This document shows positions 9,783 to 26,943 of a stretch of 48,674 bases of DNA, piece after piece. Each line of letters begins with the position of its first letter. Position 1 is the first letter of the stretch. Source of the stretch: an archaeon (lineage in GTDB: Archaea; Nanobdellota; Nanobdellia; Pacearchaeales; GW2011-AR1); contig JAUXTS010000047.1 of NCBI GenBank assembly GCA_030679115.1, positions 1-48,674 on the forward strand, in the 5' to 3' direction. The notes beneath the pieces are model-generated. The model was not told the DNA's origin, did no database searches, and saw nothing but the letters and a program-made list of their open reading frames with translations. Position numbers and translations under genes: made by a program.

Positions 9783-11972
9783 CTACTGATTCTCCGCAAG
9801 TCCTTTTCTCTGCCTGATTGTTCTTACAACATTTGGCTGCAAATCATTAGGTATTTTCTGGAAATTCTGATCCATCAAAGAAGAAATTCCTCTGCCTTCT
9901 GTCGCACTTCTCAAATCGTTGCTCCATCCAATCATTTCAGCAACTGGAATCTTTGCTTTAATCATCGTATCATTTCCTTCCTGCTGAACATCAATTAAAA
10001 CTCCTCTTTTGCTTCCAACTAATTGTGTTACAGTTCCCATAAATTCAATTGGAGCTTCAATCAAATGAGTTTGTATCGGCTCAAGCATTACTGCTCCAGC
10101 TTTTTTCATAGCTTCATACATTCCAAGTCTTAAAGCAGGATAAATTTGAGCAGGCCCCCTGTGCATGTGGTCAACGTGCAATTTTGCATCAAGTAATATT
10201 AATTTAGTTTTCATCATTGGCTCTTTGGATAAAGGTCCGCCATCGATAACCATTCTCCATCCTTCAAGTATGGATTCTATTGCTTCAGGAAGCAGAACTA
10301 GTCCTCTCGTTCTGTCTTCAAAAACATTTCCTTTGTAAATTTCCAAATATTGTCTTGCTTCATCATTTGAAAGCCCCAATTCATTAAGTTTCTTCCATAT
10401 ATCTTCAGCTTTTTTCTTTAATCTTAATTCAGGAAGCTCTCCTCTTTCAATTGCATTATAAACTTCATCTTCCAATGGTTCAATAGAAAAGAAGAATATG
10501 TTGTGTCCATTAGGAGTTCTTATTTCAGTTTTTCCGCTTTCTTTTGAAACACTTTCCCTATAAACTACAATAGGATTACCCATCTTTACTTCCAATCCCT
10601 TTTCAGTCTTGATTCTTCCTTCAATAATTTCCAAATGCAGTTCTCCCATTCCAGACATTAAATTTTCTCCAGTTTCTTCATTAATTTCAATCTTGATGCT
10701 TGGATCTTCTTTACCAACTTTTCTCAAAACTTCAATAAGTTTTGGCAAATCTGCAGATTTTGTAACTTCAATAGATTTTGTAATAACTGGCTGGAATATA
10801 TGTTTTATTTCTTCAAAGGAGGTTTGGGGGTTTTCAGTAATTGTATCTCCAACATCTACATTCAATCCTGAAATTGCAAGAACATTTCCGCACGGAACGC
10901 TATTTAATTGTTCTGGTTTTATGCCATTATAAACTAAAACCTGCTGAACTCTGTATTTCTTTTTTGCGTTGTTTGCATAAACTTCCATTCCATTTTCTAT
11001 TGTTCCAGAATATAATCTCCCGGCAGAAATTTCCTTTCCCGAACGCGGATCAATTACGATTCTTGTAATTACAAATCCTACTTCACCATCTTTATTGCAA
11101 TTCAATAAGTCCTTTCCGAACTGGCTGTCAGAGTCTCCTCTCCATATCTTTGGAATTCTGTATTTCTGTGCTTCTAATGGATTTGGAAGATGTTTTACAG
11201 CCATATCAAGAACAACTTCATACAAAGGAGCATTTGCCCAAACCCATTTCTTTCTTTCGGCTTCTTCCATATCATAAAGTTTATAGACATCTTTGAATGT
11301 GACATTTTTCTTTTTCATGAACGGCAATGATAATGCCCAATTCTCTCTCGCACTCCCAAAAGCAACGCTTCCATCCATAACATTAACCTTCCACTTTTCC
11401 TTGAATTCGGGCTCTGCAATCTGCATAATTAAATTATTAAAATCAGCAATTAATGTCATGAACCTTTCCTGCATCTCTTCTGGAGTTACTTTCAATTCCT
11501 TTATCAGTCTGTCAACTTTATTGATAAACAAAACTGGCTTTACTCTTTCTCTTAATGCCTGTTTCAATACAGTTTCAGTCTGCGGCATTATTCCTTCAAC
11601 TGCGCATACAAGAACGAACGTGCCGTCAATTGCCCTCATAGCTCTTGTAACGTTTCCGCCGAAGTCAACGTGTCCTGGCGTGTCAATAAGATTAATCAAA
11701 TATTCCTTGTCCTGATATGAGTGGCCCATAGATACGTTTGCAGCATCTACAGTCATCAATCTTTCCTGCTCGTCGCCATGCTGCCAAGTAGTCATTCCTT
11801 CATCAAGGCTTCCCGCAATCTTTGCTGACATTAATCCTGCAGCTGCAAGAAGATTATCTGTGAACGCCGTTTTGCCGTGATGTATGTGTGCGCTCGTCGC
11901 TACGTTTCTTATGTTTTCTCTCGTGTTCGTTAATCTTTCGATTTTTTGCAAACTTGCTTCTTTATCTACCAT
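9783..11972 (-). CDS. fusA: Translation elongation factor 2 (aEF2)
   Basis: DTPGHVDF, NKVD, GMGELHLE, HRGPAQ diphthamide loop, LRSATEG. Confidence 0.97.
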   Translation of the reverse strand: MVDKEASLQKIERLTNTRENIRNVATSAHIHHGKTAFTDNLLAAAGLMSAKIAGSLDEGMTTWQHGDEQERLMTVDAANVSMGHSYQDKEYLINLIDTPGHVDFGGNVTRAMRAIDGTFVLVCAVEGIMPQTETVLKQALRERVKPVLFINKVDRLIKELKVTPEEMQERFMTLIADFNNLIMQIAEPEFKEKWKVNVMDGSVAFGSARENWALSLPFMKKKNVTFKDVYKLYDMEEAERKKWVWANAPLYEVVLDMAVKHLPNPLEAQKYRIPKIWRGDSDSQFGKDLLNCNKDGEVGFVITRIVIDPRSGKEISAGRLYSGTIENGMEVYANNAKKKYRVQQVLVYNGIKPEQLNSVPCGNVLAISGLNVDVGDTITENPQTSFEEIKHIFQPVITKSIEVTKSADLPKLIEVLRKVGKEDPSIKIEINEETGENLMSGMGELHLEIIEGRIKTEKGLEVKMGNPIVVYRESVSKESGKTEIRTPNGHNIFFFSIEPLEDEVYNAIERGELPELRLKKKAEDIWKKLNELGLSNDEARQYLEIYKGNVFEDRTRGLVLLPEAIESILEGWRMVIDGGPLSKEPMMKTKLILLDAKLHVDHMHRGPAQIYPALRLGMYEAMKKAGAVMLEPIQTHLIEAPIEFMGTVTQLVGSKRGVLIDVQQEGNDTMIKAKIPVAEMIGWSNDLRSATEGRGISSLMDQNFQKIPNDLQPNVVRTIRQRKGLAENQ

Positions 11973-12041
11973 ATAATAAAATACTCAATCAACTTCTGTC
12001 TCTTGAGAATAAATCGTTATACAAAAATCGGTTTTTAAATC

Positions 12042-12143
12042 TTTAGCTAGTTAAAGCTAAAAGAGATAAAGATTACAATGTAATCTTTAGAACTTCCGCA
12101 TATATAATGCGGAATGGACTAAGAATTTTTATAAAAATTCTTA
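12042..12143. repeat. Four-hairpin element, copy A (family 1), upstream of the EF-2 promoter
   Basis: TTTAGCT/AGCTAAA; TAAAGATTAC/GTAATCTTTA; GAAC; TTCCGCAT/ATGCGGAA; TGGAC; TAAGAATTTT/AAAATTCTTA. Confidence 0.85.
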
Positions 12144-12203
12144 AGATTTAGCTTTTCAGACAAAACAAAACTTTTTATATAGGTATTCATTGATTTATTT
12201 ATA

Positions 12204-13259
12204 ATGAAAAATAAGGAGATAGTTTTTATTTTATTAGGAATGTTATTGGTTTTAGCATTAGTCTCAGCCCAGGAGCAAACTCAGACTTATTCGGGATTTG
12301 ACAGATTTACAGACAATGCTAAAATGTTCTTTTCTTTCGGAGATAAAAAAGTAAATTTAGCATTAGATATTAGAGAGAAAGAATTGAACTCCGCGATTGT
12401 AAATACAAAAGAAGGAGATAATGAAGCTATGTCTGATAATCTTAAAAATGCATGGAAGAAACTTCAAATTATTCAGGAGAAAGTTTCCTTGAATGTCGCA
12501 GATGAAGTTATAAGCAGTTCTTCTCAGATTAGGGAGAGAATATCCAAAGAAGAGAATTTACCAAAAGATTTTAATGTTTACTCTTTAGAAGAAGAGAAAA
12601 CAGGACTTACTGCAGAATGGGTTATAGAATCTAACAGCAAAGAAGAGCAAACATCAACTGGAGAACTTCAATATAAGAATGACGAGATAGATAAAGAAAT
12701 TGATGAGATAGAAAATAAGATTGACGAGATAGAAAATAAGATTGACGAGATAGATAATGAAATTGCAGAGTGGGTTGTAGATAATGATGTTGGGGTGGGA
12801 AAAGATAATGGTTTAAATTGGGAAGTTAAAACTGAAATTGCTAAAGGTGACAATGGTTTGAAACCAGAAGTAAAAACCTATGTTGCAGGGGATGGAACTG
12901 AAAAGAATGAGCCTATTCCTAAACCTGATTTAACTAAGTTTAATCCTGCTTTATACGACCCTAATGCAAGAGCTCCGGGAGATACAATTGACGAAACTTA
13001 TGATGACGAGATTGTTAATGTGGATAAGGGAGGAGGCTATGCTGAAGGAACAACCGCAGAGGGTATCGGGGGAGAAGTAGGAACAGAGGGAATTAATGAA
13101 ATTGGTACAGCCGTAGATTCTAACGAAGGAGACGAAGAAAGTTCTCCAGATGGAGATAGTTCTCCAGATGGAGATAGTGGAATAACGGGAGAAGTTATAA
13201 ATTCTGGAGATAAAGAATCATTTTTAAGAAGAATTCTTAGAGGTATATTCGGAAAATGA
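12204..13259 (+). CDS. Secreted acidic surface protein (DUF5667-like N-terminus) with tandem repeats
   Basis: Signal peptide; 21-nt heptad repeats (IDEIENK) at about 12680-12765; 18-nt duplication (SSPDGD) at about 13140-13175; ITGEVI and an amphipathic C-terminus. The DUF5667 resemblance is from memory. Confidence 0.75.
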   Translation: MKNKEIVFILLGMLLVLALVSAQEQTQTYSGFDRFTDNAKMFFSFGDKKVNLALDIREKELNSAIVNTKEGDNEAMSDNLKNAWKKLQIIQEKVSLNVADEVISSSSQIRERISKEENLPKDFNVYSLEEEKTGLTAEWVIESNSKEEQTSTGELQYKNDEIDKEIDEIENKIDEIENKIDEIDNEIAEWVVDNDVGVGKDNGLNWEVKTEIAKGDNGLKPEVKTYVAGDGTEKNEPIPKPDLTKFNPALYDPNARAPGDTIDETYDDEIVNVDKGGGYAEGTTAEGIGGEVGTEGINEIGTAVDSNEGDEESSPDGDSSPDGDSGITGEVINSGDKESFLRRILRGIFGK

Positions 13260-13942
13260 AAAAACCAGAAACAGAACATATAAAAGAAATTGGCGTTTGG
13301 AATGTAATTTGTTGGATATCTATAGGTTTAGCAGTATTATTTTCTATTTTTTCCACAGTTGTAACAATTAAAGCAGGACAGATATTTGTAGGGCTCCTTT
13401 TTTTAATCCCTGGAATTTTTGCAGCTATTCCAAAAAAATATCTTAGAATTAGCAGACCCTTAAAAGTAATTATATTTATTTTTGTTTATTTCATCCTTAT
13501 AATAATTAGCGGGATGAATGCCCCGAAACTGGAACAGAAATATGAATATTATAATTTAGGGGATTCATTTAATTTAACTTATGGAGAAGAAGTCTTCTCA
13601 ATGAAAATAAACGATATCAATAAAGAGACCAAAGTAATGATTAATGACGGACAAAATATCACTACTTCAGGATTTTATCTTATTGTAAATGGGGGAATAA
13701 CAAATTTAGGGAAAATTACATATCACAATACAAATCTATTCAATATAAAATTCATTTCAGAATTAAAAGATAACCAAGATAATATATATACTATTTTTGG
13801 AACAAATACTAGAGTTGATGGTTTTCAGCCAAATCTGGAAAAACAATTTTATGATATTTTTGAAATATCAAAACAAGCTTCAGGATTAAAGTTTCTTATC
13901 AAAGACAAAACAGAAGTCATTAAGGTTGTAAGTTTAGAATGA
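13256..13942 (+). CDS. Membrane protein with a C-terminal DUF4352-like beta domain
   Basis: Three TM helices followed by ITNLGK...ELKDNQDNIY...FQPN...FEI pattern; ATGA overlap with the upstream gene. Confidence 0.65.
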   Translation: MKKPETEHIKEIGVWNVICWISIGLAVLFSIFSTVVTIKAGQIFVGLLFLIPGIFAAIPKKYLRISRPLKVIIFIFVYFILIIISGMNAPKLEQKYEYYNLGDSFNLTYGEEVFSMKINDINKETKVMINDGQNITTSGFYLIVNGGITNLGKITYHNTNLFNIKFISELKDNQDNIYTIFGTNTRVDGFQPNLEKQFYDIFEISKQASGLKFLIKDKTEVIKVVSLE

Positions 13943-14907
13943 AAAAAGGTTTAATTGTTATAGGAATTGTAATACTGATATTGGGGATTGGAGGATATTA
14001 TTTTATGAATGAAGAAAAAGATTCTAATGAACTTCAAAAGGATAATAATATTGATATAAAAATTTCTTGCCCAGATTATGATAATAATCAAACCGAATGT
14101 TCATTGCATTTAGAATGTGAATGGATTTCAGAAGAAAACATTTGCAATTCACTTAGTGGAGATGAAGGGGAAGAAAAAATTAATTCTGGATTAGAAGCAA
14201 TTGAAATTCAAAATACTCCTTCAAATGAATTATGTAGAAAAATTCCTTTATCAAGCCAGTTTCCTTATGGCGAAAGATATCTATGTTTAGCTATAGTAAA
14301 TCATAATGAAAGATTTTGTGAAGGAGTAGAAGAAGAAAACGAAAATAACATGTGTTTAGCATATGCAAAAAAAGATTCTTCTTATTGCAAACAAATCCAA
14401 GAAGATTCAGCTAAACATGTATGTTATTATCAACTTGCCGTATCAAGTAAAAATGCCTCTTTCTGTAGCGAAATTGATTATTCTCAGAATGAGAAAGAGC
14501 AGTGTTATTTTAATTTCATGAGCAATTTATATCAATGGGGCAAATCTAATGAAATAAAGACAGAATATTGCAATCAATTAGATACTCCAGATAAAAATAC
14601 TTGCCTCGCATTAAAAGCAAAAGATATTTCTCTTTGTGGGGATAATCTTAATTGTTTAACTTTTTTCACTCAAGATTTATCTTTCTGTGAAAAATTTTCA
14701 GAAAAAACTACTTGTATAAAAGATAGAGCAAAAACAGGCAAAAATGTATCTATCTGTGAATTATTATCTCAACCAGACAGAGATATCTGTATTGGGGCTT
14801 ATTGCACACATACAGAACTCAATGTGAACATATGCGATACAATAACGGGCATAAAAGAAAGACAAGAAAGGTATATCGAGTTAGCAATGAATTTAGCTAA
14901 TTGGTAA
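13939..14907 (+). CDS. Membrane-anchored Cys-rich repeat surface protein
   Basis: N-terminal TM and repeated C-x-x-x-A...C-x-x-I...C units; ATGA overlap. Confidence 0.8.
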   Translation: MKKGLIVIGIVILILGIGGYYFMNEEKDSNELQKDNNIDIKISCPDYDNNQTECSLHLECEWISEENICNSLSGDEGEEKINSGLEAIEIQNTPSNELCRKIPLSSQFPYGERYLCLAIVNHNERFCEGVEEENENNMCLAYAKKDSSYCKQIQEDSAKHVCYYQLAVSSKNASFCSEIDYSQNEKEQCYFNFMSNLYQWGKSNEIKTEYCNQLDTPDKNTCLALKAKDISLCGDNLNCLTFFTQDLSFCEKFSEKTTCIKDRAKTGKNVSICELLSQPDRDICIGAYCTHTELNVNICDTITGIKERQERYIELAMNLANW

Positions 14908-15073
14908 ATTTTGCAATTCTTTCTTCAAAAATTTCTACAAAGGAATTTTTAGCATATTCAAATTTAAAATCCTTCGCTTCAACGCCATAATCTGGAGTTC
15001 TATATCTCGGAAGATACTCATCTCTCTGTCTTTTTGCGTTATTGTTAAGCCCATTTAATCTTTTTATTTTCAT
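14897..15073 (-). CDS. Small hypothetical protein
   Basis: ATG at 15073 overlaps the TGA of the upstream gene (ATGA). Confidence 0.5.
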   Translation of the reverse strand: MKIKRLNGLNNNAKRQRDEYLPRYRTPDYGVEAKDFKFEYAKNSFVEIFEERIAKFTN

Positions 15074-15522
15074 TTTATATTGCTTCCACAGGCGCAATTA
15101 TCTTGATAATGCATTGTTTTTCTTTTACCTTCATATTCAAATAATATCTCAAATTTTTTTCTTCTTGATTTTTCAGCATCTTTATTCACACCAAGGTTTA
15201 TCATATATTGATTAAATATTTCCAATGGGACGCCATAATGTTCAGCCATTGCTACATCATTTCCTCTGAATACTTTAAGCATAGTTTCAGCGGCATATCT
15301 AACATCTTCTCTTCTTGATTTATTGTGAAAAAATATCCTCAAAATTCCGTCTGCGTTGCCATGTTTTTTTGCACCGCCCCTAAAAACTTCAGAATTTTCA
15401 CTTATATCATCAAGTACAAGTCCAAGTAATTTTCTTTTTATTTTTATGCTTGCTCTGGGATCGTTCATAACTTCCTCTATTTCTTTCAGCAATTTGCAAT
15501 ATTTATCATCATTTTCTTCCAT
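15070..15522 (-). CDS. Hypothetical protein
   Basis: Probable start MEENDD at 15522, downstream of AAAGATTTATAAA. Confidence 0.65.
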   Translation of the reverse strand: MEENDDKYCKLLKEIEEVMNDPRASIKIKRKLLGLVLDDISENSEVFRGGAKKHGNADGILRIFFHNKSRREDVRYAAETMLKVFRGNDVAMAEHYGVPLEIFNQYMINLGVNKDAEKSRRKKFEILFEYEGKRKTMHYQDNCACGSNIK

Positions 15523-15613
15523 GAACACTCTTAAATTTGCGGTTTTATAAATCTTTCTAAATGTAACTACTAAAAAGAGACTATACAATAGAAACATTTA
15601 AATAATCTATTTC

Positions 15614-16075
15614 ATGAAGATAACTATGGAAAAAACATCTATTCAAAGACAAATTGAGAAAGCCGTAACTTCTGGAAGAGGCTATGATAGAAGAAACACA
15701 GCAAGAATTCCTTTTAATTTAGAAGATAGCGAAATTGGAGTTCAAACCGCATTAGCAAATATGGATGTATGTGACTGGAAGATGGATATGCACGAAACTA
15801 TAGAATTTGGTTCAAGACTAAATGCTTTACTGGGAAAATTTAAACGTGCAGCAATTCCATTAGAAGTTATAACTGATGCTAATGGATTTAGAGTTGCAAT
15901 GATGTCCGTTCATAATTATGAAGAAGAATTCAATCCAGTTATAACACAAGATAAATTACCTCCTGAATATATTATAAGGGATTATTCTTTAAGGGGTTCT
16001 TCTTTAAGGGGTTCTTCTTTAAGGAATACTCCTACTTATCAAATCCAAGACATTTTACAATTCCAAGTTCTTTAA
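15614..16075 (+). CDS. Hypothetical protein, possibly frameshifted near its 3' end
   Basis: TATA upstream; 15-nt tandem repeat (SLRGS) at about 15985-16024; an alternative frame stays open to 16176. Confidence 0.6.
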   Translation: MKITMEKTSIQRQIEKAVTSGRGYDRRNTARIPFNLEDSEIGVQTALANMDVCDWKMDMHETIEFGSRLNALLGKFKRAAIPLEVITDANGFRVAMMSVHNYEEEFNPVITQDKLPPEYIIRDYSLRGSSLRGSSLRNTPTYQIQDILQFQVL

Positions 16076-16229
16076 AGATAATCCCAGATAATTTAGAAAT
16101 AATCCTAAGTTCTCCTGAAGAATTAATTAAAGAAGGTTCTTGGTTCTTTAAAACAAGACATTATTCTAAAAGATAAATAAAATTTTAGGTAATTATATAA
16201 GTTAAAATTAATTTAAGAAGATAACAGAA

Positions 16230-16421
16230 TTATCTAACTAAATAACTTACTGCACTACAAGTTCCCAAAATTAAACCAACATTATAAGCAGTCACAAAAA
16301 ACATATACAGTGCATTCCTAGTGCATAAGCTTTCAAATTCCATATCAGTTATGTCCCCATTTCTGGACTTTAAGCTAAATTCTTCCCTCTCTTTTTTAGC
16401 CTTCTCATCTACGTTAAACAT
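16230..16421 (-). CDS. Small membrane protein (5' end uncertain)
   Basis: C-terminal hydrophobic helix; an upstream ATG at 16461 (MRKELSDLV) is out of frame, so a frameshift is possible. Confidence 0.5.
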   Translation of the reverse strand: MFNVDEKAKKEREEFSLKSRNGDITDMEFESLCTRNALYMFFVTAYNVGLILGTCSAVSYLVR

Positions 16422-16519
16422 TCCTGCAACAGGGAACTAAATCGCTTAATTCCTTTCTCATATTGTTATTTTTATTAATCAAGATATTTAAGCATTTATA
16501 TTATTCAGGATTATCAATT

Positions 16520-16885
16520 TTATTCTTGATGAAATTCTGGAATTTCGGTAATATCTAATCTTATTCTTTTAGAATTACAACTATAAAACTCTCCCCAAAC
16601 CTTTTCTTTCAAATAATCTAAAATATCTCCTAAGGGGGCATGTCCGACATTACATTCTTTATAATTTCGTAATCTTTTTACAAGTCCAGTTTCTTTCCAA
16701 AATTCTACACTATCTGGTAATTTTTCTGTTCTATTTTTCAATGCTTGATATTCTTTAATCATATCAATAGGAAGTTGTAAAAGAATATATGCAGCGTCAG
16801 AAACTGCGTCATTAATCGGAATAAAATCTGTATCTTCAACTTCAATTTGTTCAAAATATTTTTCAACTAATTCAGAAATTTCCAT
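16520..16885 (-). CDS. Hypothetical protein
   Basis: Probable start MEISEL at 16885 after its own TATA. Confidence 0.6.
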   Translation of the reverse strand: MEISELVEKYFEQIEVEDTDFIPINDAVSDAAYILLQLPIDMIKEYQALKNRTEKLPDSVEFWKETGLVKRLRNYKECNVGHAPLGDILDYLKEKVWGEFYSCNSKRIRLDITEIPEFHQE

Positions 16886-16940
16886 AACAAAAAAGATTAT
16901 AAGATAGTTTAAAAATTCTACTTTATATGATTCTGCAAAA

Positions 16941-17552
16941 TTATCTGGCAGAATCTGCCTGTTTCTCGCCCTCATTCTTTTTAACCATTGCATAGCTGTC
17001 CATGCTTCCGTTTGATGCGAGAATTATTTCATTGGCGAGAGTATCAGCCATTTTCTTTTTCTTTCCAAAAGCTTTTGCATAAGCTCCCTGAACAAACCAC
17101 CTCAATGCAAGATTTATTCTTCTCATTGGACTACAGTCAACTGCCTGTGGATATCTTGAACCCGCATGCTCAATAACGGTAATTTCATCTCTTGGACTTC
17201 CATTCTCTATAGCTGTAATTAAAACCTGAACTGGATTTTTCTTTGTTCTTTCTTCAATAATTTTTAAAGATTCAAGCACAGTCCCCATATTCTTGGTGAA
17301 CTTTCCAGAACTCCACGATGTAATTATCTTATGCTTCTTTCCCATATGTCCAGGAACTCCAACATGATTTGCCAATCTTTCAACGACATTAACTTTAACA
17401 ATTGAAAACTTTCCTTTTATTCTTCCGTGAGACTTCAAAAGTAATCTTGGAGTAAGATTAATATAAGGTTTCAAAGCAGGGTCTTTTATTTCTATTTCAG
17501 ATAAACTATATAAATCAAATATCTTGAATTTTTCTTCTTGTTTTTGTTCCAT
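16941..17552 (-). CDS. rps7: 30S ribosomal protein S7 (uS7)
   Basis: VERLAN, NPVQVL..AIEN..PRDE, AVDCSPMRR, LANEII.A; start set at MEQK just after the upstream stop. Confidence 0.95.
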   Translation of the reverse strand: MEQKQEEKFKIFDLYSLSEIEIKDPALKPYINLTPRLLLKSHGRIKGKFSIVKVNVVERLANHVGVPGHMGKKHKIITSWSSGKFTKNMGTVLESLKIIEERTKKNPVQVLITAIENGSPRDEITVIEHAGSRYPQAVDCSPMRRINLALRWFVQGAYAKAFGKKKKMADTLANEIILASNGSMDSYAMVKKNEGEKQADSAR

Positions 17553-17553
17553 T

Positions 17554-17865
17554 TTAGTTATCCTCTCCTCTTTCAAGTTGATAATTATGCGTTTGCAATA
17601 CCACGTTCAATCTTTCAGCTTCGGAATGTTCAGAACCATCCCATGTTGGTTGTAATCTACAATGATATCCCTCATTATTTTTTTTCGCAACTAAAAATAC
17701 ACTGCTCTTTCCTGCTCTGTGAAATACATCATAAACTCTGACAATTCTATTTCCTTCTTCATCTTCATGTCCAATATCAAATTCTGCGCTTCCTTCTTCT
17801 CCTCCAAGTATATCTGTAAGTCTGTCAATCTGTTCTTTTGTTGCATAAAATTTTACTTCTTTCAT
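17554..17865 (-). CDS. Hypothetical protein inserted between rps12 and rps7
   Basis: 103-aa ORF whose stop lies 1 nt before the rps7 ATG. Confidence 0.7.
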   Translation of the reverse strand: MKEVKFYATKEQIDRLTDILGGEEGSAEFDIGHEDEEGNRIVRVYDVFHRAGKSSVFLVAKKNNEGYHCRLQPTWDGSEHSEAERLNVVLQTHNYQLERGEDN

Positions 17866-17923
17866 ATTAATTATGTGAAGGAATACCTCTTATTCCGAAC
17901 ATTTGAAAAAACAAGTTTTTTCA

Positions 17924-18346
17924 TTATCTTCTACCCTTCTCTATCTTGCCCTTCCACAAAAGTCTAAGTGGCTGGTCATTCACTTTAATTACTTGGAATC
18001 TGATTCCGGGAATATCTCCCTTTTGTCTTCCGCTTCTTCCGCCGATTCGCTCAATTATAACTTCATCGTGTTCATCTACAAATTTCTGTGCAAGATTTCC
18101 TGGAATGAATGCTCCGACAGAAATTCCATTTTTAATCAATTGAACTTTACAGCACTTTCTCATTGCAGAGTTTGGCTGTCTCGCTTCTTTTTGCATTTTG
18201 CTAATGACTATTCCTTTTGCCTGTGCACATCCTTTAAGAGGGTCTACTTTCTTCCAAATTCCAAGTGTTCTTTTCTTGAAAGCCTTCTGGCTCCATCTAT
18301 ATTTTTTCCTAGATTTCAAAAATTTTCTCGCATTCATTAAACCCAT
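17924..18346 (-). CDS. rps12: 30S ribosomal protein S12 (uS12)
   Basis: QPNSAMRKC.KVQLIKNG, DEHDEV, GDIPG. Confidence 0.97.
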   Translation of the reverse strand: MGLMNARKFLKSRKKYRWSQKAFKKRTLGIWKKVDPLKGCAQAKGIVISKMQKEARQPNSAMRKCCKVQLIKNGISVGAFIPGNLAQKFVDEHDEVIIERIGGRSGRQKGDIPGIRFQVIKVNDQPLRLLWKGKIEKGRR

Positions 18347-18375
18347 ATTCTATCCTGATTATTTTGCTTTAAAAA

Positions 18376-18474
18376 CCTTTAGCTCGTAAGAGCTAGAGGA
18401 ATAAAGATTATTTTGTAATCTTTAGAACTTCCGTATACGTTTATACGGAACGTATCAGAGATTAAAATCTCTGA
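18376..18474. repeat. Four-hairpin element, copy B (family 1), upstream of the rps12 promoter
   Basis: CCTTTAGCTC-GTAA-GAGCTAGAGG; TAAAGATTA/TAATCTTTA; GAAC; TTCCGTATA/TATACGGAA; CGTA; TCAGAGATT/AATCTCTGA. Confidence 0.85.
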
Positions 18475-18491
18475 GCCTTATTAATACCATT

Positions 18492-18908
18492 TTATACAAT
18501 TTTTAATTCAATCCCGAAAGTATCTTTTACAATCTGGCTCAATTCTTCAAGTCTTTTCTTATTTCTTCCAAACAAAGATGCTTTTACTTGAGTGCTTCCA
18601 GATGTTATGACTGCTCCCTCTGGTGTAACCTCAAGAGATTTGAATCTTATTGGGGCAACAATATCATCTACAAATCTTTGTATATCTCCCAATCCCTCTG
18701 CTTCGCTTATTATTCTTATTTTCTTGCCGAGTTTTTCCTGTAATTCTCTTATATGCAATGCATTTGGTCCAATCGCTCGTGAAACCATGCTTCTTGGAAC
18801 TGCAAAAATAATTGCATTATTATAAATAAAACATTTGCTTGTTCTGACTCTTGAAGCCTTGTCTAATAGATTGATATACCTTATTGTTTGCATATTGATA
18901 GTTGACAT
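18492..18908 (-). CDS. nusA: Archaeal NusA (KH domains)
   Basis: AIGPN, LGKKIRII and LFGRN KH motifs; canonical position between rpoA and rps12. Confidence 0.9.
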   Translation of the reverse strand: MSTINMQTIRYINLLDKASRVRTSKCFIYNNAIIFAVPRSMVSRAIGPNALHIRELQEKLGKKIRIISEAEGLGDIQRFVDDIVAPIRFKSLEVTPEGAVITSGSTQVKASLFGRNKKRLEELSQIVKDTFGIELKIV

Positions 18909-18927
18909 GTTCTATTGGTGAATGCGA

Positions 18928-21900
18928 TTACTTCTTTTTTATTTTAGATAAGGGCCCTGTTACCTCTACCAGCAATCCAGGCAATCCAGTTCCTACAGGT
19001 ATTGCCTGATTCAGAAGAATATTTTCTATTACAGACTTAAGTTCATCCTTCCCCCCTTGAATAGTGGCATTTACAAATTGCTTATCTGGTGTCTCAAATG
19101 TAGCTCTTGCTAAAATACTTGCTTTGTCTGAAATTATTCCCATTCTTGTTACTCCCTTTACAACTCCTGAAGAAGTCATTGCATCTCCAACAAGCTTAAG
19201 ATGCCTTTCATTAATATCAAGTCCTTGACTTTCAATAACTTTATTTATTTCATGAATGATAGTCTGTCTTGCAGCTTCAATTCCTAATACTTCTGCTGTA
19301 TCATGAATATCATTAGAAGTGATTCTATCTTTGTCAATTCCTTTTACTTCTATTACTTCTTTCAAATTAGAGCCTGCAGTTAATATCACAAAATCTTTTC
19401 CTCTTTCTGCAACAACAACCTGCGCAATTCCCTTTATTCCAGAGACTATAGTTTCTTTCAATTTCTCTTTAATTTTATACATCTCTTTGAATCCTTCTTT
19501 TGCAAGATTTACACTCAATTTCAAATCATTTCCCTTTACATTAAATCCTTTTTCCTTCAATCTTTCAACTATTGTATCTGCTCCCACATGCACAGATTTC
19601 AATCCCTTGCTGTCAATAATAACTTCTATTTTCTTGTTTGAAAAGTCTATTTTTATTTCAGACATTATTTCTTTAAGCTTTACTTCTTTTATTTTTTCAG
19701 CAATAACTTTTGCATCTTTTTCATTGTTATGCTCTTTATCAAGATAAATTTCCATTAAAGGAGTTGAAGGCTGTTTTCTTGCATCAAGAATTTCAATTAA
19801 TCTTGGCAAACCCAAAGTAATCTGCATTTGAGATACTCCTGCGAAATGGAATACGTTAAGAACCATTTGTGTTGAAGCTTCTCCAAATGACTGCGCGGTA
19901 ACTACTCCGACTGCTTCTCCAGGAACTGTCTCACTGTCTTTCAAATGCAGTTTTGATACATCCTTTCCATCATCGCTGTACATAAACTGGATTATATTTT
20001 CAGAAGCATCTCTTACTGTCTTGTCATATTCAACTTTCAAATCTTGAAGTGCAGAAACTAATCTTCTATATAAGTAACCGGATTTAGGAGTTCTAAGTGC
20101 AGTATCCATAAGGCTGTCTCTTCCTGTAATGGATGCAAAGAAAAATTCAGTAGGCTTTAATCCCTTAAAGAATGAAGATTTGATAAATCCTCTTGAATCT
20201 GGGCTTAAGTCTCCTCTTTTGAAAAATGGCAGTGTTCTTTCAGTAAATCCGAAATTAATTCTCTTGCTTCCAAGAGCTTGCTGTCCGACTCCGCATGCTA
20301 TCTGAACTATGTTAAGCATGCTTCCTGCCGCTTCCGGCTGAATCATCTTATTGACATTTCCAGTTACTGGGAAATTAGCCTTTACTATCTTGGCAATTTC
20401 AGTTCTAACTTCATTTAATACTTGAAGTATTTTCATTTCTCTAGTATCTTCAAGGCTCTTTCCAGGAACATGAAGTAAGGTTCCACTTTCATAAGATTTT
20501 ACAATTTCTGCAGTTTTCTTTTCTGCATTTGCAATTACTTCATCAGTCATTTTCTTTACTTTGTCTGAGACATTTAAATCATGAAGTGATAAAGTGTACC
20601 CTTTTCTTGAAAGATAAGTTGCTCCAAGAATAAATGCCTTATTTATTGAATCAACTGCAGCTTCCCTTCCGAATTCTCTGTCAATTATTTTAACCATTAC
20701 TCCATCTTCAGCTCCGAAAGAATTGCTTCTTGTTATTTCATGTGGAACTTTAATGCTTGAGCCTTTTGGAATAATTTGTGCAAATATATCTCTTCCACTT
20801 ATTTCTTTTCCTTTTTCGCTGTTTATTGTATCTGCGGCAAATAAAAGCTGATCTGCATCTCTCTTTGAAATAATATCGCTTCCCAATAAGTATAATCCAG
20901 TTACAGAGTCTGAAATTGTTCCTACAAGATTCATATTATTCTTTGAAGAAATAATATTCTGATTGACTTCCAAAAGAGTTTTTGCTTCAGCGATAGCTTC
21001 TTCAGTCTGCGGGCTGTGAATGTTCATTTCATCTCCATCATAGTCTGCATTATAAGGTGCAGCTGCTGCGGGGTGTAGTCTGAATGTTCTGTGAGGCAAA
21101 ACTCTTACATAGTGTGCCATCAAACTTTGTTTATGCAGCGAAGGATGTCTGTTGAACAAAACTATATCTCCATCACTTAAATGTCTTTCAATTTTATAGC
21201 CTGGGCATATCTCCACACATAATTCTTCTTTCAAATCTTCAGTGATTTTCTTTCTTCTGCCATCTGTCCTTATAACATAATTTGCTCCAGGATAATTTTC
21301 TCCCTTTTTGATCAATTCTCTCATTAATTCTATATTACTTGTTGTAACACTTTCAGCAACAGTTATAATTTTTGCAATTTCAAATGGAACTCCAACTTCA
21401 TTTATTTTTATATGCGGATCTGGAGATATAACTGTTCTTGCAGAATAATTGACTCTCTTTCCAGCAAGATTATGTCTTATTCTTCCTTCTTTTCCTTTTA
21501 TTCTTTCAGTAATTGTCTTTAATGGTTGTCCGCTTCTGTGTCTTGCAGGAGGAATTCTTGAAATATTATTGTCAAAGAATGTAGTAATATGATATTGTAA
21601 TAAATCCCACAAATCTTCTATAATGACTTCAGGCGCCCCAGCATTTAGGTTTTCCCACAATCTCTGATTTGACCTGATGATATCAGAAAGCTTGTGAGTG
21701 CAGTCATCTTCACTTCTCTCTCCGCTATCTAATGTAATGGATGGTCTGACAGTTACTGACGGAACAAGCAATAATGAAAGCACAGACCATTCAGGCCTGC
21801 AGGTTTTTGGATTTATTCCGATTTTTATAAGTTCTTCATCCTTTATATTGACTAATCTTTCTCTTGCTTCTATAGGGGATAATCTTTTCTTTCCAACCAT

Positions 21901-22353
21901 AAAAGTACTTGGCTTTTCAAGTTTGACTTTTTCTAATGTTTCTCCGCAATGCGGGCATTTTTTTGCATCTCTTGCTTTCTTGGCTCTCTGGCTTGTAATA
22001 ATTCCACTTTGCTTTTCATCGCTTAATGTAAGCTTTCCGCAGTTTATGCAGAAACTTCTCAAGCAAAGTTCTACCAAAGGAATATATTTAATGTGAAAAA
22101 CAGGCCTTGCAAGTTCAATGCTTCCTGGATGTCCCGGACATTCTTTGACTCTCTTTCCGCATGTTCTGCATCTTACTCCTGGGTCAATTGCTCCAAGTCT
22201 TAAATCCATTAATCCTCCATCTACTGGAAATCCATCTATATCATAAAGTTCAGGAGTAACTATTTTTGCAGAACTCAGCTTCTTAATTTGGTTTGGACTA
22301 AGCAGGCTGAATTTCAAGGCTTTTATCTGTTTTCTAAAATATTTTTCTCTCAT
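18928..22353 (-). CDS. rpoA: RNA polymerase largest subunit Rpo1 (A' and A'' fused)
   Basis: CPGHPG, GKRVNYSAR, NADYDGD, bridge helix TPKSGY, then PGEAVG...TQMVLNVFH and RATFE in a single ORF. Confidence 0.96.
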   Translation of the reverse strand: MREKYFRKQIKALKFSLLSPNQIKKLSSAKIVTPELYDIDGFPVDGGLMDLRLGAIDPGVRCRTCGKRVKECPGHPGSIELARPVFHIKYIPLVELCLRSFCINCGKLTLSDEKQSGIITSQRAKKARDAKKCPHCGETLEKVKLEKPSTFMVGKKRLSPIEARERLVNIKDEELIKIGINPKTCRPEWSVLSLLLVPSVTVRPSITLDSGERSEDDCTHKLSDIIRSNQRLWENLNAGAPEVIIEDLWDLLQYHITTFFDNNISRIPPARHRSGQPLKTITERIKGKEGRIRHNLAGKRVNYSARTVISPDPHIKINEVGVPFEIAKIITVAESVTTSNIELMRELIKKGENYPGANYVIRTDGRRKKITEDLKEELCVEICPGYKIERHLSDGDIVLFNRHPSLHKQSLMAHYVRVLPHRTFRLHPAAAAPYNADYDGDEMNIHSPQTEEAIAEAKTLLEVNQNIISSKNNMNLVGTISDSVTGLYLLGSDIISKRDADQLLFAADTINSEKGKEISGRDIFAQIIPKGSSIKVPHEITRSNSFGAEDGVMVKIIDREFGREAAVDSINKAFILGATYLSRKGYTLSLHDLNVSDKVKKMTDEVIANAEKKTAEIVKSYESGTLLHVPGKSLEDTREMKILQVLNEVRTEIAKIVKANFPVTGNVNKMIQPEAAGSMLNIVQIACGVGQQALGSKRINFGFTERTLPFFKRGDLSPDSRGFIKSSFFKGLKPTEFFFASITGRDSLMDTALRTPKSGYLYRRLVSALQDLKVEYDKTVRDASENIIQFMYSDDGKDVSKLHLKDSETVPGEAVGVVTAQSFGEASTQMVLNVFHFAGVSQMQITLGLPRLIEILDARKQPSTPLMEIYLDKEHNNEKDAKVIAEKIKEVKLKEIMSEIKIDFSNKKIEVIIDSKGLKSVHVGADTIVERLKEKGFNVKGNDLKLSVNLAKEGFKEMYKIKEKLKETIVSGIKGIAQVVVAERGKDFVILTAGSNLKEVIEVKGIDKDRITSNDIHDTAEVLGIEAARQTIIHEINKVIESQGLDINERHLKLVGDAMTSSGVVKGVTRMGIISDKASILARATFETPDKQFVNATIQGGKDELKSVIENILLNQAIPVGTGLPGLLVEVTGPLSKIKKK

Positions 22354-22649
22354 CTTTGTCTTACAACCTCCAGACTACTTATTTCTACAACTCTTGGATT
22401 AAGAACATAATCAATTGTATTAATAAGAACAACCCTTTGAGGTTCGATATGTACTGCTTCCATTCTTCTAGCCAATTCAAATTCATCTCTATCGTTATCA
22501 ATTACCCCTATATTTTCTAATACAGCAATATAATTATTTCCATATTTCTTTCTAAGAGCATTCTCATTCTCTCTAACATAATTTCTTGCTCTTTCAAATC
22601 CTGCTAAAAATTGTTCTTCTTCTGTTCTTGTTTGTGTTTGTTGTTCCAT
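22350..22649 (-). CDS. DUF5678-like small protein inserted between rpoB and rpoA
   Basis: LRKKYGNNYIAV...VID...DEFEL pattern; ATGA overlap with rpoA. Confidence 0.6.
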   Translation of the reverse strand: MEQQTQTRTEEEQFLAGFERARNYVRENENALRKKYGNNYIAVLENIGVIDNDRDEFELARRMEAVHIEPQRVVLINTIDYVLNPRVVEISSLEVVRQR

Positions 22650-22651
22650 GT

Positions 22652-25600
22652 TTATTGTTCAAATTTATTCTTTAAGTCGAATGTAGTATTTATTCCAAGT
22701 GCAAGCAGTTCATCAACCAATAGCTTGAATGCATATGAGACTTCAATTGGTTCAATTTCATTGCCTCCACACATAGTGCAGACAATTTTATTTCTAAGGA
22801 CATCTTCATAAGTCATAAACCCGCATTCTTTGCATATATAGACTTCTGTCTTGTCTGAATCATATCTTTCCTTCAAAAGCAAAGCAGCCCCATGTCCTGA
22901 AAGTGCCTGTTGCTCCATTTCTCCAAGTCTAAGTCCTCCGCCTCTTGATCTTCCTTCAATTGGCTGTCTTGTAAGCAATGCAACTTTTCCTGATGCTCTT
23001 GCGTGCATCTTATTCTTTACCATGTATTTCAATTTCAAATAATACATATTTCCAATGTAAATCTTGGCTTCCATTTTCTTTCCAGTAATTCCATGATACA
23101 TTGTTTCTTTTCCATCAAAGCTGAACCCCATTTCTTTCAATTGATTCTCAAGTTCCTGAACGCTTTGTCCAGAGAATGAAGTCCCATCTATAATTTTTCC
23201 TGCAACTGCTCCGACTTTTCCTGCAAATAATTCTATCAAATGTCCGACTGTCATTCTGCTTGGTATTCCGTGAGGGTTGAATATTAAATCAGGTTTTACT
23301 CCGCTCGCCGTAAATGGAACATCTTCTGAATCTGCAATGAAACCGACTACTCCTTTCTGTCCATGAGGTGTTGAAAATTTATCTCCTGGTTCAGGCAGTC
23401 TCAAATCTCTTGTTCTTACTTGAGCAATCTTGTTTCCCTCTTCATCTACTGTAACAAATACTGCATCAATAGTTCCTCTTTCTTCCTGTCTTATTGCTGC
23501 ACTTGCTTCTTTCTTTGCCTGAATGCTTATGTCTTTTGCTTCACTTAAGAATTTTGGAGGAGTCGTCTTTCCAATAATTACTTCTCCTTGTTCCATACTT
23601 GCTTCAGGATAAACTATTCCATCATCTTCCAAGAATCTGTAAGAAGCTTCAGTTCTATATCCTGAAACATCTTTTTCTGGAATGGTTATCTCATCAGATA
23701 ATCCTCCAGGATATTGTAATTCAGTTGTTGAATACGGCCTGAAATAAGTGCTTCTTCCCATTCCCCTGTCAATACTTGATTTGCTCAAGACAACTGCGTC
23801 TTCAAGATTATATCCTTCAAACGGCATTATCGCTACAATTATATTCTGTCCTGAAGGATAAACTTCCAATGTATCGTATACAAAACTTCTTACCAATGGT
23901 TTTTGTGGATAGTGAAGTATAGAAACATCTGTATCAAGTCTTGTTAAGAAGTTTGCAGCATAAATTCCAAGACTCTGTTTCAATGTCTTGCTTCCTTTGT
24001 TAAGTTTTGGAGCGTGATCGTGATTTGCATAAGGAACAAGGCTCGTGATTAATCCAAATAAATCAATAGGGTCAACTTCAAGATGAGTAGAATCTTGATT
24101 AATTTCTTCCGGATAAAGCGCGACGAGCGCATTATCTTCTTCTGCCGCATCAATATATTCTACAATTCCTTCATTAATCAAATCGATCCATGTTTTTTTA
24201 TTGTTTTCAAGCAATACCAGATGCTCATCTTTCAATCTGCTTGAACCTTTTTCAACAACAATTATTGGCCTAAGAACTCTTCCAACTTCTATAGACATTG
24301 TAATCTGATTAAGAATATTATCATATCTTACACTCAATTCTCTTGGCAATTGCCCTGCTCTTCTTATTTCTCTTACTTTCTGTGCAAAATCCTGTGGATT
24401 TTCAACCATTCCTACAAATCTTCCATTAAAGAAAACGTCTTTGCCTGATTCTTTATTCAATCCTGCTTCATGGAATTTTCTTAAAACATTTCCTTCATCA
24501 AATTCTATCGCAGTCGATATTTTGCTTAAGATAGCGAGATTCTTTCTCAATCCAATTTCAGTTCCTTCTGGAGTTTCAGTTGGGCAGAATCTTCCATAAT
24601 GAGTTGGGTGAAGTGTTCTTGCCATAAAGTTTTCCTGCTCTCCAGGCAACATGGAAGAAACTCTCTGCAATTGTGAGAGCATAGCAAGATAATTTGTCTT
24701 ATCCATGTTCTGAGTTACTCCGCTTCTCTCTCCAATCCAGCTCCCTGTAGCAATCGCGCTTTCAATTCTTTGCGTGAATAAAGTAGATTTGGCAATTGTC
24801 TTTATTGAATAGAATTTTTTTCTCTTAGTTACTTTCTGAAGAGAATATTGTATATCTCTTATAAGAATTCCCATGTTTACTCTGAATAAATCAGACATCA
24901 AATCACCTGAAAGTTTTACTCTCTTATTTGCATAATGGTCTTTGTCGGTTCTTATTTTTTCACTTTCTGTTGCTCTAAGATATAATTTAATAAGTCTGCA
25001 TAAAGTAAGTGCTTTTTCTCCTCTTGAACTTTTATCCGTTCCTATATGAGGTAGGAAAAATGAATCTATTTTTTGCTTTACTCTGTCAATAATTTCTTTT
25101 TTTGTTCCTTGTATTCCTGTTTTTTCAGCAAGATAGGCTATTGCATCTTCGCTTTCCTGTAATTTTGCAAATTCATATAAGTTAACAATTAAAGAATCAT
25201 TTTCGTGTCCAATGTGCTTTGCAATATCGGCTTCTTTTGTCATTCCAAGGACTTTCAAAACAACTATTGCAGGAATATTTTTCAATCTGCTGAAAGTTAA
25301 TTCCAATAATCCTTCATTTGTAGATATAATTGTTGTCGGAATTCTATATGAACCTTTTTGCGAGAAAATTCTTAACATTAATCCATATCTTCCTTCTTCT
25401 ATAAATGGCTGATTTGCAGCCAAATCTTCATTCATTACCATGACTCTTTCATTTCCATTAATTATAAAATATCCTCCAGGGTCAAGAGGATCCATATAAT
25501 TTTCTATCATCTGCTCTTTATTCATTCCATGAGTATTACAGACAGCGCTCTTAACCATGATTGGAATTCTTCCAATTTCAACTTCAGAACTATCAGATTG

Positions 25601-25900
25601 ATTTCCGAATTTAACTGTCAATTCTACAAAAACAGGGGCAGAATAAGTTAAATTTCTCAATTTTGCCATAGTTGGAGTGATAAGACTGCTACTTCCGTCT
25701 GCTTCAATGATATTTGGAGTTTCAATTCTTATTTTTCCAAGCTTAATTTCAACTTCTTCATTATTTATTGTGTCATTTATTTCGTTAATAATAGTCTGCA
25801 TTTTATTTTTAATAAAATCATTGAAAGAAGATACGTTGGATTCAACCAGAGAATGCTGTTCAAGATATTTTTTAATCAATAAATGTTTTTGTTTTTGCAT
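22652..25900 (-). CDS. rpoB: RNA polymerase subunit Rpo2 (B, unsplit)
   Basis: GGYFIING, CPTETPEG, GYNLEDA, GDKFSTPHGQKG, GGLRLGEME, C-terminal Zn ribbon. Confidence 0.97.
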   Translation of the reverse strand: MQKQKHLLIKKYLEQHSLVESNVSSFNDFIKNKMQTIINEINDTINNEEVEIKLGKIRIETPNIIEADGSSSLITPTMAKLRNLTYSAPVFVELTVKFGNQSDSSEVEIGRIPIMVKSAVCNTHGMNKEQMIENYMDPLDPGGYFIINGNERVMVMNEDLAANQPFIEEGRYGLMLRIFSQKGSYRIPTTIISTNEGLLELTFSRLKNIPAIVVLKVLGMTKEADIAKHIGHENDSLIVNLYEFAKLQESEDAIAYLAEKTGIQGTKKEIIDRVKQKIDSFFLPHIGTDKSSRGEKALTLCRLIKLYLRATESEKIRTDKDHYANKRVKLSGDLMSDLFRVNMGILIRDIQYSLQKVTKRKKFYSIKTIAKSTLFTQRIESAIATGSWIGERSGVTQNMDKTNYLAMLSQLQRVSSMLPGEQENFMARTLHPTHYGRFCPTETPEGTEIGLRKNLAILSKISTAIEFDEGNVLRKFHEAGLNKESGKDVFFNGRFVGMVENPQDFAQKVREIRRAGQLPRELSVRYDNILNQITMSIEVGRVLRPIIVVEKGSSRLKDEHLVLLENNKKTWIDLINEGIVEYIDAAEEDNALVALYPEEINQDSTHLEVDPIDLFGLITSLVPYANHDHAPKLNKGSKTLKQSLGIYAANFLTRLDTDVSILHYPQKPLVRSFVYDTLEVYPSGQNIIVAIMPFEGYNLEDAVVLSKSSIDRGMGRSTYFRPYSTTELQYPGGLSDEITIPEKDVSGYRTEASYRFLEDDGIVYPEASMEQGEVIIGKTTPPKFLSEAKDISIQAKKEASAAIRQEERGTIDAVFVTVDEEGNKIAQVRTRDLRLPEPGDKFSTPHGQKGVVGFIADSEDVPFTASGVKPDLIFNPHGIPSRMTVGHLIELFAGKVGAVAGKIIDGTSFSGQSVQELENQLKEMGFSFDGKETMYHGITGKKMEAKIYIGNMYYLKLKYMVKNKMHARASGKVALLTRQPIEGRSRGGGLRLGEMEQQALSGHGAALLLKERYDSDKTEVYICKECGFMTYEDVLRNKIVCTMCGGNEIEPIEVSYAFKLLVDELLALGINTTFDLKNKFEQ

Positions 25901-26107
25901 TTATGCCACCACCCTATAATAAAAATAAACTTTATCTTCGGTTTTTCTTTCAATTTTCAGAACATCTCCAGGAACATAGCCTTGAAGAATTGCAGGATCA
26001 GTCGATTTAATTTTAGGCAATTGAGAAAGAGAAATATTATATTTTTCCAATAAATCTTTAATTTCTTGAGGCTTTAATTTTGTATGTTTGGGTTGTAAGA
26101 TGTGCAT
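25901..26107 (-). CDS. rpoH: RNA polymerase subunit Rpo5 (H)
   Basis: HILQPKH...QLPKI...DP...GDVLKIER...YYRVV. Confidence 0.95.
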   Translation of the reverse strand: MHILQPKHTKLKPQEIKDLLEKYNISLSQLPKIKSTDPAILQGYVPGDVLKIERKTEDKVYFYYRVVA

Positions 26108-26180
26108 GGATATCGTTGGAGTTTACATAAATTTAATTTAAGCAACTCAATTAAATTGATTGCAAAAATGGCTTTTTAAA

Positions 26181-26282
26181 TCTTTTGCCGTTGGGCAAAA
26201 GAGATAGAGAATTCTAAAAGAATTCTCTAAGGACTTTCGACGTAAGTCGAAATGGACAAAGAATTGTTTTTTCAATTCTTTG
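26181..26282. repeat. Four-hairpin element, copy C (family 1), upstream of the rpoH promoter
   Basis: TCTTTTGCC/GGCAAAAGA; TAGAGAATTC/GAATTCTCTA; AGGAC; TTTCGAC-GTAA-GTCGAAA; TGGAC; AAAGAATTG/CAATTCTTT. Confidence 0.85.
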
Positions 26283-26412
26283 GAGTTTTCTTCAAGAAAC
26301 ATTTAACTTCAAAAATAAGCCATTTTTGTAGAATGGCCCCGACGGCTGAAAGAATTTTCGTAACCTCAAATTCTTAGTGCCCTCGGTTCCAATATAATCT
26401 GAAGAGTTTATA

Positions 26413-26487
26413 TGGCCCCGACGGGATTCGGACCCGCGACACCTGGATTAAAAGTCCAGTGCTCTGACCAGGCTGAGCTACGGAGCC
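26413..26487 (-). tRNA. tRNA-Lys(UUU)
   Basis: GGCTCCGTAGCTCAGCCTGGTCAGAGCACTGGACTTTTAATCCAGGTGTCGCGGGTCCGAATCCCGTCGGGGCCA folds as a cloverleaf with anticodon TTT; no intron; TATA upstream. Confidence 0.95.
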
Positions 26488-26545
26488 ATGACAACACGAG
26501 AAAAAGTTGTTATATAAATCTTTATTTTTTGGAGAATTAAGTTTT

Positions 26546-26866
26546 CTAAAAGACTTCATTAATTCTTTTCTTCAATTCTTCTTTTGGCATTGCACCCATA
26601 GTACTATCAATATGCTCGCCGTCCTTGAAAAAAAGCAGAGCCGGAATGCTCATAACTTCAAATCTCTGCGCCAAATCGCTTTCTTTGTCAATATTAATTT
26701 TTCCAAAATGAACTTTTCCTTTCATCTCTTTTGCAAGTTCATCAACAATCGGAGAAAGCATTTTACATGGCCCGCACCATTCTGCCCAGAAATCAACAAT
26801 CACTTTTCCTTCAGAAATAAAATCATCAAAATTCGCCTCTTTTAATTCTGTAACACTTCCCATCAC
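26546..26866 (-). CDS. trxA: Thioredoxin
   Basis: WCGPC active site and cis-Pro motif SIP. Confidence 0.96.
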   Translation of the reverse strand: MMGSVTELKEANFDDFISEGKVIVDFWAEWCGPCKMLSPIVDELAKEMKGKVHFGKINIDKESDLAQRFEVMSIPALLFFKDGEHIDSTMGAMPKEELKKRINEVF

Positions 26867-26943
26867 ATATTTTAAAAGATTAAGTTAATAAATCTTTTTG
26901 TGATATTTTATTTATCGTCGCTGTCGATAAAATTTAAATATAT

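Follow-up and report, generated by a model that had tools for sequence, protein, structure and literature searches.

We analysed a 48,674-nt contig of an archaeon of the Pacearchaeales (the window; contig JAUXTS010000047.1 of assembly GCA_030679115.1) and found that three of its intergenic regions carry an array of four hairpins next to the TATA box of a core gene. These arrays belong to a multi-copy family with a common architecture, a recurrent promoter geometry, a distribution restricted to the lineage and copy-paste relationships between its members. Tentatively, we read it as a mosaic family of palindrome cassettes, almost specific to this lineage and copied as DNA from promoter to promoter. 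The cassettes appear to have spread as DNA between strong promoters rather than to represent an RNA gene, and by analogy with known palindromic repeats they probably form a transcript boundary beside strong leaderless promoters. Tiny genomes of the DPANN type have almost no spare DNA, yet perfect hairpins stand here at the edge of the strongest promoters and behind tRNA genes. The window is contig C30 of a genome (G000) of 698,930 bp in 56 contigs, with a GC content of 33% and an estimated completeness of ~82%.

Architecture and pairing of the hairpin family

Each of the copies A, B and C of the window, read at its coordinates, contains four hairpins (H1 to H4), and in every copy of the family H1 begins directly after a TATA box, termed T1. 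Copy A (12042..12143) has H1 at 12042-12061, a linker, H2 at 12067-12089, H3 at 12094-12114 and H4 at 12120-12143; its T1 (12032..12041, minus strand) is shared with the promoter of EF-2 (open reading frame (ORF) 9783-11972, minus strand). In copy B (18376..18474) the four hairpins occupy 18376-18399, 18402-18424, 18429-18450 and 18455-18474. Its T1 (18368..18375, minus strand) is the TATA box of rps12 (ORF 17924-18346, minus strand), with the hexamer beginning 27 nt before the ATG, and the copy fills the space between the rps12 promoter and the stop codon of a gene encoding a NusA-like KH protein (18492-18908, minus strand). Copy C (26182..26281) comprises H1 at 26182-26201, H2 at 26205-26229, H3 at 26235-26252 and H4 at 26258-26281, with T1 (26173..26182, minus strand) upstream of rpoH (ORF 25901-26107, minus strand). 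The twelve hairpins of the three copies thus lie within a 20-kb stretch of the window.

The folding of each copy was compared with that of 200 dinucleotide shuffles on both strands. The z values ranged from -6.6 to -9.7 on either strand (-7.1 on the plus strand and -7.8 on the minus strand for copy A), and none of the 200 shuffles folded as well. A perfect 12-nt inverted repeat (26163-26174 and 26317-26328) encloses T1 and copy C (26163..26328); this length was reached in none of 200 shuffles of the flanks (p<0.005). The left arm of the repeat is the conserved promoter-proximal stretch of rpoH, and the right arm is its inverted duplicate. The original prediction had described the three four-hairpin copies, two four-base loops, a single G.U pair in copy B and the enclosing repeat of copy C, and all these features were recovered as described. 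Among the contigs compared with 11900-26400, a near-identical strain covers copy C with one piece of 750 nt bearing 7 differences; the remaining contigs were a mixture of other organisms, and no usable variation inside the hairpins was found in this set.

A covariance model built from four full copies (R1) and a core-only model (R2; T1, H1, linker and H2) were used to search the genome, as the original prediction had proposed. Besides weaker members, R1 retrieved four full copies at 93-125 bits: copies A (125.5 bits), B (108.9 bits) and C (93 bits), and a fourth one, D (123.7 bits), situated on contig C24 upstream of the gene for ribosomal protein S10. With R2, which scored copy A at 79.3 bits, 13 core copies reached E<=2.7e-5 and one more had 2e-4, so that about ten further copies, with two to four hairpins each, exist beyond the four full ones. 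Permissive pattern and hairpin scans gave mostly noise, and only those of their rows that are named here were used.

The constant part of the family is a core of ~68 bp composed of T1, H1, a G-rich linker of 3-5 nt and H2, while H3 and H4 are optional and variable, which brings the number of hairpins per copy to between two and four. At its base the H2 stem has a sequence that is conserved among the copies and in two related genomes (G040 and G066), whereas the arms of H1, H3 and H4 change from copy to copy. Some copies remain close to one another: A and D have 85% identity across 116 nt that include the loops, and the H1 of B is identical to that of E down to the G.U pair. The GC content of the family is no higher than that of the genome. 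No match to Rfam was obtained at the gathering score for the whole window, or at E<=1 over 11900-26450 and in 24 other loci with family members, in line with the prior statement that the family was not a recognised one.

The core was aligned under the guidance of the covariance model, as the core alignments produced by MAFFT were structurally inconsistent. In 18 copies (14 from G000 and 4 from relatives), 93.1% of the cells at paired positions could pair against 78.4% in shuffles, changes on both sides were found at 15 of the 20 pairs, and the covariation score was 0.475 against 0.196 in shuffles (reached by none of 500) and at most 0.151 in slid controls; these figures are overstated, because the rows are paralogues that were fitted to the model. 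Even so, complementarity is kept across the copies, and the claim that the stems differ while their pairing persists was borne out. The step from there to selection on an RNA structure, and hence to a non-coding RNA, was not supported in the form proposed. Over all four helices of 13 copies, 347 of the 398 cells are Watson-Crick; G.U pairs on the plus strand occupy 14 cells and A.C combinations, which are G.U pairs on the minus strand, 10 cells, most of them at helix ends. The constraint is therefore strand-symmetric. Selection on the RNA of one strand is not shown by these stems, and a strand-symmetric pairing could come from mutation templated from one arm to the other.

Hairpins are abundant in this genome in general. 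Perfect intergenic hairpins with stems of at least 9 bp number 90, against ~6 expected from shuffles, an excess of ~85 which includes mixed types, and many of their arms begin with purine-rich sequences. Such hairpins occur at 2.2 per 10 kb throughout G000, compared with 1.0 per 10 kb in the syntenic loci of relatives. A lone palindrome of the H2 type, without H1 or T1, is located in the window at 26875-26897, in the spacer between the ORFs 26546-26866 and 26944-27759.

Promoter geometry and neighbouring genes

In 456 upstream regions of the genome, TATA-like hexamers form a sharp peak 30-27 nt before the ATG (246 and 90 occurrences in the peak bins, 3 to 32 in the other bins). The genes of G000 therefore appear to be mostly leaderless. 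The consensus of the transcription factor B recognition element (BRE) is A-rich. At S12 (copy B) and S10 (copy D), T1 precedes the ATG by 27 and 29 nt, respectively, which matches the leaderless spacing, and the arm of H1 nearer to the TATA box lies where the BRE is expected and fits the A-rich consensus. These two promoters thus show the layout expected of an archaeal BRE/TATA promoter, with a TATA box 27-30 nt before a leaderless start and an A-rich BRE, and the proposed overlap of H1 with the BRE next to the TATA box was supported. At EF-2 (copy A) and rpoH (copy C) the start codons are 67 and 73 nt from T1, giving leaders of ~40 nt, and at rpoH a second A/T box, a weaker one, stands 29 nt ahead of the ATG. 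T1 and the adjoining downstream stretch are conserved in relatives without the hairpins, at EF-2 in the metagenome locus L050 and at rpoH in the loci L053/L054, and also at rpoH in L045. The native promoter of both genes is therefore T1, with the array starting at the BRE.

In copies facing the reverse way, the outer arm of H2 is followed by a TATA box, which precedes the S27e gene by 28 nt (copy N) and the gene adjoining copy P by 29 nt. In G066 the same combination precedes a GTPase gene by 30 nt. The core looks like two outward-facing BRE/TATA units, with each BRE embedded in a palindrome.

The products of the neighbouring genes, assigned by Pfam, are EF-2, S12, RpoH (Rpb5_C), the NusA-like KH protein, S10, L1, SecE, L3, L37Ae, S27e and RpoN, as well as a tRNA intron endonuclease, an integrase-family protein, a cation exchanger and a nucleotidyltransferase. 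Of the 14 copies, 9 adjoin a gene for a ribosomal protein, RNA polymerase or an elongation factor, which would suggest, as a rough inference, an enrichment at such genes. The promoter link does not hold for every member of the family. Convergent genes flank copy I, whose H4 overlaps the stop codon of rpoN, and copies H, J, N and O are downstream of a gene running in the same direction. The idea that the element is docked on promoters of core genes thus applies strictly to S12, at 27 nt; it is loosened by the distances at EF-2 and rpoH and by the members that face no promoter on the opposite strand.

Shared modules and distribution among relatives

The hairpin modules of the family are also found behind tRNA genes. 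A module of 57 nt with two hairpins is 98% identical at two sites (C49:35593-35649 and C47:1490-1546), once in the loop of H1 in copy N, ahead of S27e, and once behind tRNA-Pro. The H1 arms and bulge of copy I recur in the trailers of tRNA-Gly and tRNA-Cys, and a trailer hairpin matches H1 of copies I, J and N in arms and bulge. The presence of the 57-nt module at two sites and the recurring hairpins indicate that modules are reused at different sites. In the window, the trailer of tRNA-Lys (26329..26411, minus strand; tRNA gene at 26412-26488, minus strand) contains a hairpin that resembles by eye H4 of copies A and D, and ends with 13 nt that repeat the 3′ end of the tRNA exactly (~26333-26345).

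This duplication is common in the genome. An exact second copy of its own 3′ end, 13-36 nt long, was found 66-166 nt downstream of 14 of the 39 tRNA genes, and at none of the 39 in the upstream control. Between the two copies of the 3′ end stands a chain of hairpins, which often contains an inverted and a direct copy of the local T-loop, and the tRNA-linked modules begin directly behind a copy of the T-loop in which a likeness to T1 is seen by eye. These trailers may have arisen as integration scars, by template switching or through an odd processing of the pre-tRNA. Hairpins of the element were not seen by eye in the 12 tRNA introns of the genome.

In related genomes, R1 matched 1 of 40. R2 had no match in the 39 other genera searched within the same family; in a further set of 39 genomes from the order it matched 2, with one copy each (G040, 1.9e-9; G066, 4.3e-4), which makes 2 of 78 related genomes for the core model. 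For each genome the scoring covered only 128 first-look candidates, and many of the genomes were incomplete, so that absence means not found in those searched. The family is almost restricted to the lineage of G000.

Orthologous promoters were compared in fifteen metagenome loci that encode relatives of the NusA-like protein at 54-67% identity; the original prediction had suggested looking for such promoters devoid of the element, and they proved to be frequent. The array is absent from the EF-2 promoter in all 4 loci that cover it, and from the rpoH promoter in 4 of 5 (including L050, L051 and L053/L054), the fifth (L045) having a decayed copy detected by R2. In L051, 37 nt separate the tRNA-Lys gene from the TATA box, with no trailer and no array, where G000 has ~230 nt of trailer and array. 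At the S12 promoter, R2 found a clear two-hairpin copy in L055, both stems of which have changed on both sides, and a weak two-hairpin copy in L048. Inspection by eye of 12 S12 loci detected a single palindrome abutting the BRE in about half of them, each of a different sequence, and none in the rest. In the loci L045-L055, the last codons of the NusA-like genes resemble the base of the H2 stem, and at L047:750-817 the end of this gene is extended into a perfect hairpin across the stop codon.

Readings of the family and other structured stretches

In the reading that we tentatively favour, a cassette would be copied at the DNA level onto strong leaderless promoters and from one of them to another. 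H1 and H2 would be doubly constrained, with one arm serving as BRE and the other being complementary to it: the TATA-proximal arm of H1 would be the BRE for the gene read away from T1, and the BRE-like outer arm of H2 would, in some copies, abut a second TATA box facing outward. H3 and H4 would be add-on palindromes. The hairpins stacked outside the BRE may stop the transcripts of neighbours that run into the promoter, or cap their 3′ ends, and may act likewise on transcripts fired backwards from the symmetric TATA box.

Several observations weigh against this reading. No target-site duplications were found at the copies; the direct repeats that flank them do not exceed chance except for one at p=0.03, and significant flanking inverted repeats occur at only 2 of 13 copies, C and O. 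In the ~82% of the genome that is assembled, the Y1 transposase of the REP-associated type (RAYT; Y1_Tnp, PF01797) gave no match and TnpB nothing above the cut-off. The many two-sided changes in the stems are unlike a recently active element, and the BRE-abutting palindromes of differing sequence at S12 argue for a function selected in place rather than for mere spread. As for the boundary function, hairpins are as dense in divergent as in convergent spacers (3.9 and 2.7 per kb, with 3.5 in tandem spacers and 0.76 in coding sequence), and the available text of a study of four model archaea describes their terminators as U-tracts without hairpins (PMC8716108).

The main rival holds that the hairpins are not mobile and evolved in place for the same function at the edge of promoters, a palindrome embedding the BRE being selected at strong leaderless promoters of the order and the likeness within the genome resulting from gene conversion. 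The BRE-abutting palindromes observed by eye at S12 in L046, L048, L050, L053/L054 and L055 speak for it, as do the same layout at the GTPase gene of G066 and beside a gene of G040, the fit of the proximal arm with the A-rich BRE consensus, and the two-sided changes at three quarters of the core pairs (15/20). This explanation nevertheless leaves aside copy I between convergent genes, the reuse of modules at tRNA genes and the identical module nested in copy N, and most orthologous promoters of relatives function without an array. We consider it possible, with considerable doubt.

Divergent transcription of a small non-coding RNA from the symmetric TATA box is unlikely. Such an RNA would start at the linker ~30 nt from T1, comprise H2 to H4 and end at a T-run after H4. 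In most copies 30-31 nt do separate the linker from the T1 hexamer, and this is the TATA-to-start spacing of the genome; A-rich BRE-like bases are also present on the other side of T1, T-runs follow H4 in copies A, C and D (an archaeal terminator would be a U-tract of 4-7 at the transcript end), and the covariation is strong. Bidirectional firing from one TATA box is moreover reported for Pyrococcus furiosus in the available text of PMC6640164. Such an RNA would however exclude H1, which covaries as well as H2, and it fits poorly with G.U pairs free of strand bias, a GC content that does not rise above that of the genome, a number of hairpins varying from two to four, the mixed orientation of the copies relative to their neighbours and the absence of any Rfam match.

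Perfect strand-symmetric palindromes beside highly expressed genes would also suit a cruciform, or a DNA module that responds to supercoiling ahead of strong promoters. We hold this explanation to be very unlikely. Extrusion would need arms longer than the 7-11 bp found here, and copies are also found between convergent genes. Of the three origins that the original prediction had offered, the mobile or copied promoter-side element thus fits best, and the divergent RNA and the cruciform retain the low probabilities given here.

An array of operators for dimeric transcription factors is hardly credible: the base of the H2 stem is conserved as such factors would demand, yet the arms of H1, H3 and H4 differ between copies, the H2 half-sites are spaced by 5 to 12 nt with added bases that are complementary to each other, and one H1 (copy N) holds the 57-nt insert in its loop. 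The variable spacing and the insert rule out a rigid dimer operator and suggest either that a single strand folds or that templating from arm to arm keeps the palindromes perfect.

Among known systems, the family is, by analogy, more like the repetitive extragenic palindromes and bacterial interspersed mosaic elements (REP/BIME) than an RNA gene. Like them, it consists of short extragenic palindromes with conserved linkers in mosaic arrays; both are multi-copy, lineage-specific and intergenic, and REP/BIME are thought to cap or stop transcripts. The differences are the lack of a RAYT/Y1 transposase match, a number of ~14 core copies instead of hundreds, AT-rich stems, and a first palindrome that is fused to the TATA box and doubles as BRE. 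Miniature inverted-repeat transposable elements are recognised by terminal inverted repeats together with a target-site duplication, a combination that the family lacks. The palindrome-associated transposable elements derived from IS200/IS605 bear hairpins, are devoid of genes, have neither terminal inverted repeats nor target duplications, and lie beside one short motif. The present family is similarly hairpin-bearing and gene-less, without target duplications and always beside one short motif. It differs in that neither TnpA nor TnpB was detected above the cut-off in G000, the copies are not near-identical, and no sharply bordered empty site was found. Extragenic palindromes are described in bacteria; for some archaea, counts of such elements are given in a report whose available text mentions neither DPANN nor promoters (PMC12306157). 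With archaeal BRE/TATA promoters the family shares a T1 at the leaderless distance from S12 and S10 with A-rich bases on both sides, and with bidirectional BRE-TATA-BRE promoters the two outward-facing boxes of several copies; in contrast, the accounts of known promoters, in the parts available, do not describe a BRE within covarying palindromes or hairpins stacked upstream. No earlier description of hairpin arrays fused to BRE/TATA in DPANN-type archaea appears among the titles and abstracts found.

A more far-reaching version of the copying hypothesis is distinctly doubtful. It would make the family a new kind of element, composed of gene-less hairpin modules that dock beside an A/T-rich motif common to TATA boxes and the T-loops of tRNAs, through an unknown enzyme or template switching at heavily transcribed sites. 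At promoters the BRE would be rebuilt as a hairpin arm, yielding terminator-promoter cassettes for leaderless genes; at tRNA genes the outcome would be a hairpin trailer and a duplicated 3′ end. If the arrays are boundary elements, they would represent a hairpin-dependent separation of archaeal transcription units, compared with the plain U-tract terminators that are known; if they are mobile, they would represent a promoter- and tRNA-seeking element without a known enzyme. In either case, covarying stems without strand bias do not alone prove an RNA gene.

Three reverse-transcriptase matches occur in the genome (C36:8866-9504, C18:3715-4338 and C1:25734-26006); they were considered as partners of the hairpins and set aside, as no link to the hairpins was seen. 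They look like those of diversity-generating retroelements. Beside the one on C18 is a pair of 86-nt repeats, 81% alike (L088 2093-2178 and 2458-2543), which has by eye the look of a template and a variable repeat.

Other structured stretches were encountered outside the family. The AT-rich spacer between copies D and E contains a GC-rich segment of ~180 nt with three strong hairpins (C24:18790-18975; L001 ~490-675), which had no Rfam match at E<=0.1. Since RNase P RNA was not found in G000 at E<=1, this segment is a candidate for an unannotated RNA. A match to the signal recognition particle (SRP) RNA at C20:7728-7986 stays below the Rfam gathering score (62 against 96.5 bits, E 4.5e-14) and is probably a reduced SRP RNA. 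Strongly structured non-coding stretches repeated between contigs and close to contig ends (C11:4150-4340, C56:1900-2140 and C46:10380-10560) may be the flanks of unassembled rRNA genes.

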